The notes under the pieces were generated by a model, which was not told the origin of the DNA, made no database searches, and saw only the letters and a list, made by a program, of their open reading frames with translations. This document shows positions 1,619 through 48,307 of a stretch of DNA of 64,000 nt, piece after piece (the stretch's first letter is position 1; each line of letters starts with the position of its first letter). A program made the translations under genes and the position numbers. Source of the DNA: a virus (taxonomy: Duplodnaviria; Caudoviricetes); the IMG/VR virus record IMGVR_UViG_3300031992_000039, positions 1 to 64,000 of that record; one strand, written 5' to 3'.

Positions 1619-2689
1619 TTAATAGCCGTAAGGCTGATCATAAGTCTGAGTAATACCAGTATTCTGATAAATACCCCAGTTATAATGGGTAAGAATCGCA
1701 CAACCCATCTTTTTATAAGCGTAGACTTCAAGAGAATTGTCCCTATTGGTAAAGTCGCGGATCTGAGTGGCACCCTCAAGAACAACCTTAACTATCTTCT
1801 CATTTCCAGTAGGAAGAATGTAAGCAAGCTGAGGATCAATCCAAGTCTTCGTATTAGTCTCATCAATGAAAGACTGAGGAATTTGGACAATAGGAGCGCC
1901 ACGGAAGATATTGATATAACCAGTCTTATGAATGGCCTCAATATCATCAGGAGAATAAACTCCCTGAATGCCAGCAGCAGCAGGAGAACCATAAGCAGTG
2001 ATAGGAACGATCGCATCAGCGCCCATGGCGGCCACAAACTCAGGGGGCGCGAAAATTACAACATTGTTGCCGTATGCACGAACAACACTCATAAGCTTCG
2101 CCATCTTATCTCCTTCGAAGGTAGAAGAAGTAACCATGTTCGCGCTAGGACGATCAATAGCGGATAACGCTGCGCGCAGAGCACGCTGGACCTCCACAAA
2201 TACAGCATCAGTGAGGCCTTCGGTTATAATATCCATAACCTCGGCAAGAGACTCAGCACCATCAAGCATACGCTCAAAGTCTACCGTCGCACCGCCACCA
2301 ACTGCATGTGCAGCAAGTTCAAAAGTGGTACTATCAAGACGGAAAGTCTCATAAACGCCAGAAAGACCAACCTGAGTTAAGAACTTCTTGGCGCGAGCCT
2401 TACCAACCCTCTGCTTAAAGATAGCCTTTTGACCCTGTGGTACAGTCTGCACCTCAGCAAACATGCTAAGAGCGGAAATAACCTTCTTAGGCATAACCTT
2501 ATCAACGGTTTCAACAATGATATCATAAATATCGTAACGGTTCTTCATGAACTGATTAACGGAACCAGCGAGCTCCTTTAATCCATCAACAAAGGCCGCA
2601 TTTACATCAACTTCCCCGTTGCTGTAGCAAGCAGGAACAGTTCCCTTCGCAGCATGAAGGGCAATTTCTTTTAATTCAGCAATAGTCAT
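1619..2689 (-). CDS. Major capsid protein (HK97-type fold expected)
   Basis: 356 aa, highly expressed codon bias, GGAGGG RBS, followed by a terminator; order portal-protease/scaffold-decoration-MCP as in SPbeta-like phages. Confidence 0.8.
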   Translation of the reverse strand: MTIAELKEIALHAAKGTVPACYSNGEVDVNAAFVDGLKELAGSVNQFMKNRYDIYDIIVETVDKVMPKKVISALSMFAEVQTVPQGQKAIFKQRVGKARAKKFLTQVGLSGVYETFRLDSTTFELAAHAVGGGATVDFERMLDGAESLAEVMDIITEGLTDAVFVEVQRALRAALSAIDRPSANMVTSSTFEGDKMAKLMSVVRAYGNNVVIFAPPEFVAAMGADAIVPITAYGSPAAAGIQGVYSPDDIEAIHKTGYINIFRGAPIVQIPQSFIDETNTKTWIDPQLAYILPTGNEKIVKVVLEGATQIRDFTNRDNSLEVYAYKKMGCAILTHYNWGIYQNTGITQTYDQPYGY

Positions 2690-2704
2690 TTTATCACCCT
2701 CCTA

Positions 2705-3268
2705 TTAGCAAGCATATACCTGGAACTTTACGCCTAAAGTGCCATCAGGCATCGTGGTTTTCTCAATAACACGAAGACAAATGCCCTCAGTCGGTGCGGT
2801 AGCAGTAATAACATGAGAGCCATCAGTACCGGGAGCGGCATAAAGAGGAACCTCTTTATAGCTAGCAAGGGCGGAAATGAAGGCAGACTCAGAAGTCCAG
2901 CCAGTATCAACAGCAGAATCATAACTAATGCAATTAGTTGTATACTTATCACCAACGGCTAAATACCCAAGACGGGGATAAAAATCGTTCGTGCCATTAA
3001 GATAAAAATTCCCTAAACCGGGAGTCCTCTCATCGTACATATGCTCTGCACTATAGTTCAGTGCAATAGGCAGACTGTTGTCAGTAGGAAGAGTAACCTT
3101 TCTATTAACATTGTCGACCGCAAGAAGCATACCATTTTCTACTTTAATATTACTAAAAACGGTGGAATCGGGCGCGCACTGAGCTTCGATACGACCGTCG
3201 CGACGGAAGGCACAGTTGTTAATTTCAACTTGGCCGAATCCATCGATGGTTAACCTAGTAAGAGCCAT
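2705..3268 (-). CDS. Putative capsid decoration/auxiliary head protein
   Basis: 187 aa, beta-rich (ENGMLLAVD), directly upstream of the MCP. Confidence 0.6.
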   Translation of the reverse strand: MALTRLTIDGFGQVEINNCAFRRDGRIEAQCAPDSTVFSNIKVENGMLLAVDNVNRKVTLPTDNSLPIALNYSAEHMYDERTPGLGNFYLNGTNDFYPRLGYLAVGDKYTTNCISYDSAVDTGWTSESAFISALASYKEVPLYAAPGTDGSHVITATAPTEGICLRVIEKTTMPDGTLGVKFQVYAC

Positions 3269-4627
3269 TTATATAACCTCCGTTACTTTATATCTGTCTA
3301 AAATCTTTTTTATGCCAAACCTTTCTTCCTTAGGCACTTTCCCGCCATCACGGGCCTGAGTGAACATTGAAGAACTAACCTTCTTTAATTCGTAAGCAAG
3401 ATGCATATCTAATTCTTCTACCGTATACTCTTCAAGCTTTGACTGATAAGATTCAATAACCTCTTCAGAAAGCATATTGGCGTACTCGGCAATAACAGCC
3501 TCTTTGGACTGATTTTCGATATCCTTCTTATAAGTCCTTAAATTGTTAACTTCTTCAGTAAGCTGCTCATTTTCCGCTTGCAGGGCCGAATATTGAGCTT
3601 TGGCATTTTCTGTCTCTATCTTTAAAGTGGAAACTTCATTATTAAGCTCTTCATTTTTGATGCCAAATTCTGCGCACTCTGCCGCATTCTTTTCAGCATT
3701 AACTAAATTTTCATTTAATAATTCATAATTCCCACCATTTAACTGTTGGAGAGAATCAAGAATCGACTTCTCTTGTTCAGTAACATCAACAATGTAAACT
3801 CTTACATGGTCACCAATTTCAATAGAATCAGATTCATCATTTTTGGAATAATAGATTCTCTCATATGTACAAGACTCAATGTTGAAGGCAATTGCATAAT
3901 CATCATAAATATCACAAATTGAATATCCAACTGTCCAATTGCCTTCTTCATTATATTCGGGATTTAAAAGCTCCCAAATATATCTGTATTTTTGATCGTC
4001 AGAAAGTTTAAAATTAATCTGCATTTCCGATCTTTCCTCCAATTTACTATACTCTTTTATTTTTCGAATCGCATTATCAATAGTATCTTGCAAAGCAAAG
4101 AAGGAGGCACCTTCAAAACAAGGCTCGACCTCATCTCCTAATACCTGTAGCCCTAGAAAACAGCCCTTATCAAAAACGATATACTTCTGTCCTTGAAATA
4201 TCGCTGCGTGATACTTTAATGAATGTTCATATAACTCCATGGATAAGCTTTTTCCTGCTATCTGCCGAGCCTCAGGATATAGGGCGGTATACATATATAC
4301 GTCAGAGCAAGCATACGTTCGCTCTACTCCGTCCTCATCTATATGATTTTCCCACGCAAAATTGTTTGCTTCTGGCACTATACCATAAATTCGCCCTTCG
4401 TCACGACTATTGCCATGATCAGTATAATCTCCATCTTCAAAAATTCCCTTAATAGGAACATAATGAAGACTATTAATTAACATCTCCGCAAATTCATCCG
4501 TAATATAAGTACCGTTTCTATTCGGCCCCTTATAAAAAATGCGACACCGAATTTTTGTTAATATATCGTTAACAGGTTTTGCTTCCCCGTAAATGCTGAT
4601 CGGAAACTCTAATATTGATGTATTCAT
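3269..4627 (-). CDS. Putative prohead protease with C-terminal coiled-coil scaffold
   Basis: N-terminal GPNRNGTYI...SMEL...LGDEVEPCFEGA domain typical of head maturation proteases; acidic coiled-coil C-terminus. Confidence 0.7.
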   Translation of the reverse strand: MNTSILEFPISIYGEAKPVNDILTKIRCRIFYKGPNRNGTYITDEFAEMLINSLHYVPIKGIFEDGDYTDHGNSRDEGRIYGIVPEANNFAWENHIDEDGVERTYACSDVYMYTALYPEARQIAGKSLSMELYEHSLKYHAAIFQGQKYIVFDKGCFLGLQVLGDEVEPCFEGASFFALQDTIDNAIRKIKEYSKLEERSEMQINFKLSDDQKYRYIWELLNPEYNEEGNWTVGYSICDIYDDYAIAFNIESCTYERIYYSKNDESDSIEIGDHVRVYIVDVTEQEKSILDSLQQLNGGNYELLNENLVNAEKNAAECAEFGIKNEELNNEVSTLKIETENAKAQYSALQAENEQLTEEVNNLRTYKKDIENQSKEAVIAEYANMLSEEVIESYQSKLEEYTVEELDMHLAYELKKVSSSMFTQARDGGKVPKEERFGIKKILDRYKVTEVI

Positions 4628-44479: not shown

Positions 44480-44770
44480 ATTTAAAAGTCAGTATCTGCC
44501 TACAAGTTACTCTTCTCTTTTGTCGTTTTAAAAGGTACTCTTCGCTTCAATTCGGCAAATACTGACTTAATTTGGTACCAGTGACGCAACCTTTCCGGAC
44601 TAAGCTATTAACGGACGGTCTGATCCGACATTAATTTTAAGGGATAATGTAAACCTCCAGTAACCATCCACTTACTGGCGTGCCAACATCCCCTATGCTG
44701 GGAGGAGTCGTTTACTTCTTCAAAAGGGTTTCTCTCCTTTTGGATACGGCGCGGGGACTACCGCGCAGTT

Positions 44771-44829
44771 TTACTCCAGCCGGACTCGAACCGACGACCT
44801 CAAGCTCTCGCCATCTGAGCTATGGAGTA
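44771..44829 (-). ncRNA. tRNA-like RNA lacking the anticodon arm
   Basis: TACTCCA/TGGAGTA acceptor, GCTC/GAGC D arm and GTCGG-TTCGAGT-CCGGC T arm, joined by only TTGAGGTC. Confidence 0.7.
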
Positions 44830-44834
44830 ATAAT

Positions 44835-45277
44835 TTTGCCTCGCACTCTTAAATTAATTAGAATTACAGGGAACGTGGCTCTCCTGCGTATTCTTTTTTG
44901 TTGCCCAAGGCGTCCCACTCGCTTACTCTAGTCCTACCTTATCATCAGATTCAAAGCATTTTATTGGCGAAATAAATACTTTTTCCTAGAACCTTGGCAA
45001 TAGCAGCAACCTCACAATAAGCTGAAATCTGCTTGGCCCGAAGAGCGCCACTCTTGAGCGGCCTTTATCTACACATACACGGTAGAAAGGTTTTTGAATC
45101 CTTAAATTCGCTTTAGTCTGTTCCACGGCTTCCTTGCTGCCTCTCGGCGAGCTATAGCCGAAATTTCACGCGTAACAGGTACTGTTGTATTAGAGTTCGC
45201 TTCCCTAACTGGGGGGCATCCAGTAGACCTCTCTTCTACTTCTTCCGCGGTAAGTAGAAGTTGATATTGCGAATTTT
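44835..45277 (-). ncRNA. Large structured ncRNA candidate A (about 440 nt)
   Basis: Own sigma-A promoter at about 45300-45330; no credible ORF; long-range stems and crossing pairings. Confidence 0.6.
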
Positions 45278-45403
45278 CTTTTTCCTTTTCTTATGTATAT
45301 ATTATATAAGAAATTTAAAACTTTTTCAAATTTTTAAATACCTTTCTCATATATCCGCAAATATTGAGCTTTCACCGTCAGTCGCGCGAACTTCGGAGGG
45401 CAT

Positions 45404-46516: not shown

Positions 46517-46966
46517 TTATGTTAGACAAGTTATACACTCACCGGGAGATATTTGCATATGCACCCAAGCTTCTAGTTGGTCGTAAATACACTCTTCTGA
46601 ACTATTCCAAAAATTCGTACACCCTCCAAAAGTCATTACTGAGGTAGGCTTATCCGTAACCTGAAACACATAAACAGGTTTCCCAATTCCAAAAGCATAT
46701 CCCTGCTCCCAATTAGTGCCGGCTGTACTCTCTCGTCCAGTTGATATAACTACCATCATATCACAATTTTTTATTTGATCTATATCGGTCTTAAATACTT
46801 TAAGTGCCCATAGTTCTTGGGTCATATCCCAAGCATTAGGGACCTTAAAATCAAAGGGACAATATACTATCAATCCCTTTTTACGAAGAAAGGCCGCGAT
46901 ATTCTTCATTCGTGTCCTATCATTTGAATCACAAGAGCCCGCGAGGTATACCTTACCAGTTCTCAT
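46517..46966 (-). CDS. Nucleoside 2-deoxyribosyltransferase-family protein
   Basis: VYLAG, D...I..CD and GTNWEQGYA..GKPV; likely start MRTGK. Confidence 0.8.
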   Translation of the reverse strand: MRTGKVYLAGSCDSNDRTRMKNIAAFLRKKGLIVYCPFDFKVPNAWDMTQELWALKVFKTDIDQIKNCDMMVVISTGRESTAGTNWEQGYAFGIGKPVYVFQVTDKPTSVMTFGGCTNFWNSSEECIYDQLEAWVHMQISPGECITCLT

Positions 46967-47147
46967 CATCTTCTTCTCCCTCAAAGAAATTAAATCCACA
47001 AATGGGACATTCATTAAGAAGTTCGTGCTTAAAATCGCATTTATATATGGGCTCCCAGCATTCGGGACATTCAAAGAATTCCTCTTCCCAATCAACAAAG
47101 GCGCCGTAGTTTTCCTCTACATACTTTGCAGCTTCTCCCCAATTCAT
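46953..47147 (-). CDS. Small Zn-ribbon protein
   Basis: CPEC...CPIC; own promoter. Confidence 0.7.
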   Translation of the reverse strand: MNWGEAAKYVEENYGAFVDWEEEFFECPECWEPIYKCDFKHELLNECPICGFNFFEGEEDDENW

Positions 47148-47244
47148 TTTTATCCCTCACTTTCTATATAAAGTATACCAAAAATTTTAGGAAAAATCAA
47201 ATTTATAATCATCTTTGTTAAAGTTCTACTATAAAGATTAAATG

Positions 47245-47330
47245 TGTAGACGGTGGGATTTGAATCCACGAATGCTCATCACATCATCTGTTTTCAAGAC
47301 AGACGCCATAGACCTCTCGGACACGTCTCC
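47245..47330 (-). tRNA. tRNA-Ser(UGA), partly degenerate
   Basis: Loop CTTGAAA and long variable arm; mismatches in acceptor and T stems; no CCA. Confidence 0.75.
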
Positions 47331-47334
47331 ATGA

Positions 47335-47846
47335 AAAACAGCGGTAACCGCCAATAAGTGTAACCCGCTGCTGATCCGGTCATCACCCCACACCAGTACA
47401 CTGGGATGCATCTTCTAGATCTTTTCGCTCTTACTCTCGCTCGTCAATTGCGATGCGGGAAGCGACGGTTGTATGCGAATGAAGTTAGTTAATTTCTAGC
47501 GGCCGCTGATATCTTCCTTTCATGCCGCATTTAGACAGCAGCTACCTGTCCCCAGCTAATGGCTCGTTTCGTTACAATGACCAGGCTCCGAGCCATTTCC
47601 CACCTGTAACTTCATTCGCGTGCGGGTCTGGTTTTAGCACCCCGCATGATCGGCCTCAGCAAATTCCTACCGACTTTCCTGCCTAATTAGCAGGTCTAGT
47701 TGCACTTAATAGTCTACCGGAAGTTGATCGAGTTCCCGGAGGTGGCGGACTCACCTTTGCGTGGGAGTTTGTGTCTATATAGGCACTTGGGCGGTTTACT
47801 CGAACACAAGTTACTTGCAAACTGTGTTCTAAGATTGCTCCCACAA
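47335..47846 (-). ncRNA. Large structured ncRNA candidate B (about 510 nt)
   Basis: Fills the gap between two tRNAs; 13-bp and 9-bp perfect stems and many hairpins; GC-rich; no credible ORF. Confidence 0.65.
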
Positions 47847-47847
47847 A

Positions 47848-47941
47848 TGGCGGAAGTGGCAGGGTTCGAACCTGCAAAGTGGTGACGTCAAACCACAGGG
47901 ATTTAGAATCCCCCGCCTTTAACCTATTTGGCTACACTTCC
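47848..47941 (-). tRNA. Amber suppressor tRNA (CUA) with a Ser-like body
   Basis: GGGGA-TTCTAAA-TCCCT anticodon arm, long variable arm, G73, GGAAGTG/CACTTCC acceptor and CCA. Confidence 0.88.
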
Positions 47942-47979: not shown

Positions 47980-48055
47980 TGGTGCGCCCTCCGGGGCTCG
48001 AACCCGGGGCACGCGGATTAAAAGTCCGCTGCTCTACCACCTGAGCTAAGGGCGC
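47980..48055 (-). tRNA. tRNA-Lys(UUU)
   Basis: Loop CTTTTAA, ACCA end. Confidence 0.93.
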
Positions 48056-48064
48056 ATATAAATC

Positions 48065-48253
48065 TTAATACTTCGCCGTCCTATGAAGCAGCAAAATAAT
48101 AAGAGGAACGAATATAAGTAAGATTTCTCCACCATACAGTGACGGATCAGCCCTGTGCACCATCGCATAGGGTCTCGCGCAGAAAAACAATCCCACACCA
48201 AGTGCTGCAGCAGCAAGGTAACTACTCACCACTTTTAAAAATCTCATATTCAT
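48065..48253 (-). CDS. Small two-TM membrane protein
   Basis: Two hydrophobic stretches; own promoter. Confidence 0.6.
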   Translation of the reverse strand: MNMRFLKVVSSYLAAAALGVGLFFCARPYAMVHRADPSLYGGEILLIFVPLIILLLHRTAKY

Positions 48254-48307
48254 TCCCCTTTCTTTTCAGTATAAATATTATATAAAAAATTTAATGAAAA
48301 TTCAAAT

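Follow-up and report, generated by a model that had tools for sequence, protein, structure and literature searches.

A candidate modular non-coding RNA in the tRNA operon of a ruminant-gut phage

Introduction

Does the 517-nt stretch between the amber-suppressor tRNA gene and the tRNA-Ser gene of a ruminant-gut phage encode a structured RNA, and does such an RNA belong to a known family? A preliminary description of the locus had proposed a large non-coding RNA, either a member of the ROOL or GOLLD class or a new RNA released by tRNA processing. As background, it had placed ROOL and GOLLD in the tRNA clusters of phages, which is correct (bioRxiv 10.1101/2024.12.08.627333), and ROOL is likewise found in relatives of the present phage. 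ROOL (RF03087) was treated by Weinberg et al. 2017 (PMC5737381) and by cryo-EM (bioRxiv 10.1101/2024.12.08.627333). GOLLD is about 800 nt long and has a conserved 3' half (PMC5737381; bioRxiv 10.1101/2024.12.08.627333). Few known natural RNAs are as elaborate as these large structured RNAs of phage tRNA islands, for which no function is known.

The phage and its tRNA island

The window analyzed here covers the first 64 kb of a virus record that is 111,327 bp long, carries direct terminal repeats, and has a genome GC content of 37.3%. The phage genes in the record code for a Clp-type head protease, PhoH, an endolysin with SH3 domains, and a nucleoside 2-deoxyribosyltransferase (NDT). The sequencing runs that contain the 517-nt stretch originate from the gut of sheep, cattle, and goat. 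Three diverged copies, each from a different study, were compared with it: X5 (bovine), X7 (sample type unrecorded), and X16 (goat).

Ten tRNA genes, all on the minus strand, lie between 43734 and 48055, and the minus strand carries every gene over the 10 kb around the stretch. The position given earlier, between the suppressor tRNA and tRNA-Ser, is confirmed, the gap (47331-47847, 517 nt) being flush with both tRNAs. The features of this part of the island are the following:

48277-48305, minus strand: sigma-70-like promoter (TTGAAT-17-TATAAT), heading the 62-aa ORF, tRNA-Lys, tRNA(CUA), the 517-nt RNA, and tRNA-Ser
48065-48253, minus strand: 62-aa ORF, hydrophobic by reading, with no family match
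47980-48055, minus strand: tRNA-Lys(UUU)
47848-47941, minus strand: tRNA(CUA), an amber suppressor whose variable arm is long and whose CCA is encoded; the 3' end of this tRNA sets the 5' end of the 517-nt RNA
47331-47847, minus strand: candidate non-coding RNA, whole, 517 nt
47244-47330, minus strand: tRNA-Ser(UGA); its 5' end (presumed RNase P site) sets the 3' end of the 517-nt RNA
47172-47200, minus strand: promoter-like site, heading the Zn-ribbon-like ORF (47147-46953) and the NDT gene (46969-46517)

An AT-rich box similar to the 48277-48305 promoter appears again at 45296-45318 and at 47167-47189. The Zn-ribbon-like ORF (46953-47147, minus strand) codes for 64 aa with two CxxC pairs and overlaps the start of the NDT gene. 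It is probably a real small gene because a 66-aa ORF lies at the same place in three related phage loci (L018-L020). For the flanking 289-aa protein, no relative was found in IMG/VR.

The genome uses the standard genetic code, with no recoding of TAG, TGA, or TAA. The amber-suppressor tRNA(CUA) is thus found in a standard-code genome; hardly any ORF becomes longer when TAG is read as sense, and TAG is the rarest stop, ending 4 of 90 long ORFs.

Coding capacity and composition

The stretch had been described as GC-rich and free of any ORF led by a ribosome-binding site, and both statements hold. Its GC content is 49.7% compared with 37.3% for the genome, and it ranks among the top 1.6% of windows of 517 nt. 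The block of the phage with the highest GC content is found beyond the window, at 90354-92900 of the genome, where windows of 517 nt reach 56.5% GC compared with 37% for the genome. Each of the six frames of the 517-nt stretch holds at least seven stops; no frame is open under table 11, and no change of code clears one. The sole mini-ORF led by a Shine-Dalgarno motif, with 21 codons at 47596-47531, was rejected as a gene, as a UGA is gained in the copies X5 and X7. When two spurious ORFs of the stretch were used as bait, nothing was found in an index of 5.8 billion proteins.

Predicted structure

All the pairings listed in the preliminary description are present in the sequence. The longest is a perfect 13-bp stem (47475-87/47607-19), within which a 9-bp stem (47558-66/47589-97) is nested. 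A 7-bp stem (47761-67/47838-44; GUGGGAG/CUCCCAC) closes an 84-nt three-way junction. Three hairpins complete the set: TGCGGG/CCCGCA (47621-26/47641-46), CCTGC/GCAGG (47677-81/47689-93), and CAGCGG/CCGCTG (47339-44/47365-70). The chance baseline for inverted repeats was set with 300 dinucleotide shuffles. The longest perfect inverted repeat measures 13 bp compared with a shuffle mean of 8.1, and this length was reached in 1 of the 300 shuffles. Moreover, 34 inverted repeats of at least 6 bp were counted against 21.9 +/- 4.7 in shuffles, a number reached in 4 of 300. Taken singly, the 9-bp and 7-bp stems are within chance (a 9-mer arose in 86 of 300 shuffles).

Four modules are predicted. In the direction of the minus strand, they are:

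47759-47847, minus strand: D1, three-way junction closed by GUGGGAG/CUCCCAC; outside the aligned parts of X7 and X16, which end at 47757/47758
47620-47758, minus strand: D3, with 47622-47707 free of listed differences in X5, X7, and X16; flanked by unlike sequence on both sides in X16
47473-47621, minus strand: D2, multi-branch, closed by the 13-bp stem and holding the 9-bp stem and two hairpins; 47481-47559 unchanged in relatives
47331-47472, minus strand: D4, variable 3' part with a hairpin at 47384-47408, the X7 deletion at 47437-47454, and a terminator-like hairpin followed by U5 at 47353-47334

The folding energies are unequally distributed over these modules. For the whole RNA, the z-score of the minimum free energy is -1.64 on the minus strand, which is not significant, and -3.91 on the plus strand; the X7 copy reaches -0.46 on the minus strand. 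D1 (47759-47847) has z-scores of -2.6 (minus) and -2.8 (plus), and D2 (47473-47621) of -3.6 (minus) and -5.2 (plus). The energies of D3 (47620-47758; minus -0.7) and D4 (47331-47472; minus -0.4) are not significant, with z-scores of -0.4 to -1.0. The word "ornate", used for the whole RNA in the preliminary description, is borne out only for D1 and D2, which fold better than shuffles, D3 and D4 folding no better than these. More structure than in random sequence of equal composition is demonstrable for only about half of the 517-nt RNA.

Comparison with known RNA families

The proposed membership in ROOL or GOLLD did not hold up. All 4227 models of Rfam 15, with ROOL, GOLLD, raiA, and OLE among them, were run, and at gathering score only tRNAs were matched in the window. 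Inside the 517-nt stretch, no model stood above noise at E<=10, the matches with E<10 being noise of 13-14 bits. None of the models for OLE, raiA, HEARO, group I and group II introns, RNase P RNA, tmRNA, 6S, YrlA (Y-RNA-like), or tRNA matched in the stretch, and ARAGORN called no tRNA or tmRNA within it. The ROOL model RF03087 (gathering threshold 99.1 bits) gave no match at E<=10, neither on an 801-nt segment nor in the whole 111-kb genome. ROOL consensus blocks, for instance CAGUGAAGA, GUAAUCAAUC, GGGGUAAGAAG, and UCAGACUUAUCUCCC, were sought by eye on the minus strand, and none was seen. No Rfam model match was obtained for GOLLD, and the 517 nt found here compare with about 800 nt for that RNA.

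Two loci of related rumen phages, L013 and L014, found through their Clp protease (62% and 57% identity), served as a positive control for the search. A full-length ROOL is present in each (L013:7843-8450 and L014:6804-7400; 268 and 275 bits), a short way upstream of the genes for tRNA-Met and the protease. A DUF3800-XI RNA (RF02975, 49.4 bits) was also observed inside the tRNA island of L014, at 4236-4286.

A ROOL or GOLLD diverged beyond the reach of these models would fit the tRNA-island context, the rumen origin, and the size, and the presence of ROOL in L013 and L014 points the same way. Against it stand the lack of any ROOL match in the genome at E<=10, of any Rfam match, and of any ROOL consensus motif. 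Furthermore, the ROOL of the relatives adjoins tRNA-Met and the Clp protease gene, a place held in the present phage by another spacer. Such a diverged member is extremely unlikely.

This other spacer (44480-45403, minus strand), which occupies the place of ROOL in L013 and L014, is conserved in the two closest assembled relatives (L017:3300-4153 and L018:6600-7074; nhmmer E 5e-169 and 6e-73). A conserved promoter belonging to the spacer precedes an RNA of ~440 nt, in which compensatory changes are visible (CTTCTACTT..AAGTAGAAG vs CTTCTGATT..GGTCAGAAG). No Rfam match was found for the spacer. A 59-nt tRNA-like element within it (44771-44829, minus strand) scores 40.5 bits with the Rfam tRNA model. 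As it lacks the anticodon arm, the element was not called by ARAGORN. L017 has a conserved version of it, in which the T stem shows compensatory changes. Since this spacer is conserved with compensatory changes, the spacers of the island do hold real RNAs. The evidence for the 517-nt RNA is weaker than that for the spacer RNA, in which such changes are seen.

Variation among diverged copies

The copy in X7 is a 602-nt contig that aligns to 47248-47757 with ~92% identity and covers almost all of tRNA-Ser and the RNA up to 47757. It differs by 38 substitutions, an 18-nt deletion (47437-47454), and one insertion. The copy in X5 covers 47461-47729 with 6 differences. The copy in X16 is limited to 47621-47758, with 2 differences, and its contig runs on in unlike sequence on both sides. 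The variation is clustered: 11 substitutions and the insertion fall in 47386-47403, and 6 substitutions fall in 47708-47721. Two cores, in contrast, are free of listed differences, the 79 nt of 47481-47559 in X7 and X5 and the 86 nt of 47622-47707 in X7, X5, and X16. In further runs (X6, X8-X24), a fraction of 0.08-0.23 of the sampled words is present; these runs are leads and not evidence.

Homology ends at 47621 and at 47757/47758, where borders between domains are predicted, which suggests separable modules, the break at 47758 being firmly defined by X16 only, as the 108 unaligned bases of X7 can be assigned to neither end of its contig. A different account can be given of the break at 47621. 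D2, with 145 bp and 13-bp terminal inverted repeats, could be a short mobile element of hairpin type that entered an older spacer. Its inverted ends are perfect, the homology of X16 stops precisely where the right arm has its outer edge, and the X7 substitutions at 47619 and 47621 cluster at this edge. However, D2 is present as a single copy, and no 12-mer elsewhere in the genome matches any of its parts; no target-site duplication is visible, and X7 and X5 have D2 at the same place. A mobile origin of D2 is very unlikely.

As for the pairings, some of the changes respect the predicted structure. With the substitutions 47560 T>C and 47566 G>A, common to X5 and X7, two pairs of the 9-bp stem become G.U, which holds for the minus strand only. 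The 47384-47408 hairpin has 7 bp, with one U.G on the minus strand. In X7, it carries 11 substitutions and one insertion and is nevertheless rebuilt as a perfect stem of 6 bp, the 5' arm being kept and the loop and 3' arm replaced. The 18-nt deletion of X7 takes out one whole 4-bp hairpin. Other changes do not respect the structure. The transversions at 47480 and 47596 break pairs within the 13-bp and 9-bp stems, and the change at 47619 removes, on the minus strand, the terminal pair of the 13-bp stem, while that at 47474 makes a new adjacent pair. Five of the six substitutions in D2 are in its two long stems and not in the loops. Overall, three changes that break high-confidence pairs stand against two that preserve pairing as G.U, a rebuilt hairpin, and a deletion the size of one hairpin, among copies that are 92-99% identical and thus too similar for covariation or other statistics. 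A long-range helix linking the variable clusters (47393-47402/47711-47720; p about 0.4) was dropped, as it is uncompensated in X7.

Transcription and strand

A sheep-rumen metatranscriptome, X3, contains 86% of the sampled words. One of its contigs, exact and 535 nt long (47389-47923, depth 27), runs from inside tRNA(CUA) through most of the 517-nt RNA, and an exact 313-nt contig (depth 7.7) lies over the next promoter and the Zn-ribbon ORF. The remainder of the 2 kb is without exact cover, and the uncovered parts are no evidence of absence. The cover is uneven, which argues against uniform DNA carry-over, and the bridging of tRNA(CUA) and the 517-nt RNA by one contig fits co-transcription. 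These contigs carry no strand, end, or abundance information and are support, not proof, of expression. The flush borders, the bridging contig, and the probable sharing of the tRNA strand together place the stretch in a tRNA operon.

A short terminator-like hairpin with U5 (47353-47334, minus strand) ends the 517 nt just before tRNA-Ser. On the plus strand, one promoter-like site only was seen, within the tRNA(CUA) gene (47882-47909), and one weak terminator-like site only. With modest certainty, the tRNA orientation, the promoters, and the terminator-like hairpin point to a minus-strand RNA.

It may be asked whether the active form is instead a plus-strand antisense RNA, or whether the palindromes act at the DNA level as protein-binding or cruciform sites. 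The z-scores are better on the plus strand (-3.9 for the whole and -5.2 for D2), and the long stems are perfect Watson-Crick helices without G.U. Moreover, a few wobble pairs favour this strand (D1 palindrome, 47474/47620), and the X7 changes at 47474 and 47619 keep pairing on it only. The advantage in z-score, however, comes mostly from a weaker baseline, as shuffles of the C/U-rich plus strand fold poorly. The long stems, being perfect Watson-Crick, are uninformative on the strand. The changes in the 9-bp stem and the wobble of the 47384-47408 hairpin favour the minus strand. The lone plus-strand promoter-like site, the weak terminator-like site, the minus-strand orientation of the genes over the surrounding 10 kb, and the RNA contig that bridges into the tRNA further argue against a plus-strand or DNA element, which is quite unlikely.

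Distribution and related phages

Searches of IMG/VR, JGI metagenomes, GTDB genomes, and GenBank phages yielded no homologue of the 517-nt stretch. Blastn in distant mode against GenBank phages and nhmmer against 28 loci of related or pattern-matched phages gave no homologue. Exact 20-21-mers of the invariant cores gave no homologue in IMG/VR and four chance matches in the JGI metagenomes. In the GTDB genomes, their single match, on a Flavobacterium chromosome (L029), was rejected, as there is no wider similarity. Patterns specific for tRNA-Ser and tRNA(CUA), aimed at the neighbours, retrieved tRNAs only. Single-sequence covariance models of D2, D3, and D1, built in a pipeline whose control gave a self-match of 119.7 bits, found no homologue in all the loci and five whole related phage records.

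The closest assembled relatives (L017-L020) have an NDT that is 64-66% identical, and the genes for NDT, adenylosuccinate synthetase, Clp, PhoH, and RNA ligase are syntenic. In L018-L020, the position of the 517-nt stretch is taken by two tRNA-Arg genes directly before the Zn-ribbon ORF, with no such RNA, and the tRNA island is therefore very plastic. In L018, the closest relative, a gene for a DUF2828/DUF7788 protein (2087-3613) was observed inside the tRNA island, between tRNA-Trp and tRNA-Thr. As far as can be seen from these searches, the element appears confined to a narrow lineage of ruminant-gut phages.

The most serious competing explanation is a functionless mosaic spacer. The tRNA island would be a recombination hot spot, and the 517 nt would be what shuffled modules have left behind, transcribed only by virtue of their place in the tRNA precursor and then degraded, the stems being partly chance and partly relics. 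The tRNA content and the spacers are wholly different between close relatives, the homology is block-wise with sharp breakpoints, and there are uncompensated changes in stems. Half of the stretch folds like shuffles, and the four collections searched gave no homologue. The invariant blocks could also come from recent recombination between phages and not from selection. On the other hand, a GC content of 0.50 is kept in a 0.37 genome, the 13-bp stem exceeds chance, the depth in the RNA library is above that of the next gene, and identical cores are found in runs X5, X7, and X16 from different studies. A functionless spacer is a possible, somewhat doubtful explanation of these observations.

Proposed interpretation

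The preferred reading is that the 517-nt stretch is a new, uncatalogued modular structured RNA of the phage tRNA operon, to which a probability of roughly 0.5 is given. The earlier idea of a new large non-coding RNA released by tRNA processing is retained in part: it agrees with the anatomy, with the finding of the stretch in an RNA library, and with its partial conservation, but part of the stretch folds no better than shuffles. In the proposed scheme, minus-strand transcription would start at the 48305-48277 promoter and take in tRNA-Lys and the amber-suppressor tRNA as well. An RNA of ~517 nt would then be freed by the 3' maturation of tRNA(CUA) and by a presumed RNase P cut at the 5' end of tRNA-Ser. 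This RNA would fold into separate modules in the order D1, D3, D2, and D4, of which D1 and D2 seem clearly structured; D3 and the inner part of D2 are the sequence-conserved cores. It may act in trans as a stable RNA during infection, and the conserved, apparently unpaired cores might bind a host or phage partner. Within the phage genome, a search for a trans target gave one 12-mer complement elsewhere, which equals the chance expectation. The acting form could be one RNA or a chain of smaller RNAs.

A more ambitious version of this modular RNA can be formulated. The stretch would be the first known representative of a family of ornate, modular RNAs in rumen-phage tRNA operons, with swappable modules, two invariant cores, release by tRNA processing, and action in trans. 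Such an RNA could either assemble with itself, like ROOL or GOLLD, or serve as a decoy or scaffold with the adjacent Ser-type amber-suppressor tRNA and the phage RNA-repair genes. This version as a whole is speculative and rather unlikely. Self-assembly as in ROOL and GOLLD, considered by analogy, is possible.

Significance

The present phage lacks ROOL, which related phages carry, yet its island holds this candidate RNA and at least one other conserved uncatalogued RNA. If the 517-nt RNA is real, it would represent a further class of tRNA-island RNAs and point to interchangeable modules. It would also help to tell what is essential in such RNAs, for instance the position in a tRNA operon and the conserved cores, from what is dispensable. 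With 0.5 kb, it offers a compact target for structure work. If the stretch is a mere spacer, it shows how well hairpin-rich, GC-rich, transcribed DNA can mimic an ornate RNA.

Comparison with known systems

Stable RNAs other than tRNAs have a precedent in the tRNA cluster of phage T4. This cluster yields species 1 and 2 (rnaC/rnaD), which are about 120-140 nt long and of unknown function; they are co-transcribed with the phage tRNAs and freed by tRNA-processing enzymes. The 517-nt candidate is, like them, a non-tRNA RNA in a phage tRNA operon, but the T4 RNAs are shorter, and a relation in sequence is not expected.

In kind, the candidate resembles ROOL and GOLLD, as a large RNA of a phage tRNA island that would be a member of neither family. 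It shares with GOLLD the character of a large phage or prophage RNA adjoining tRNAs, which in GOLLD are sometimes embedded in the RNA. The likeness to ROOL extends to the rumen origin, the phage-encoded location in or near a tRNA island, the size of about 0.5-0.6 kb, the non-coding nature, and a GC content that is high relative to the genome. There are also differences: the 517-nt stretch has no covariance-model match to ROOL, shares no motifs with it, and has no long terminal closing helix. ROOL forms a homo-oligomeric nanocage. Finally, ROOL is one globally closed fold, in contrast to the independent modules predicted for the 517-nt RNA.
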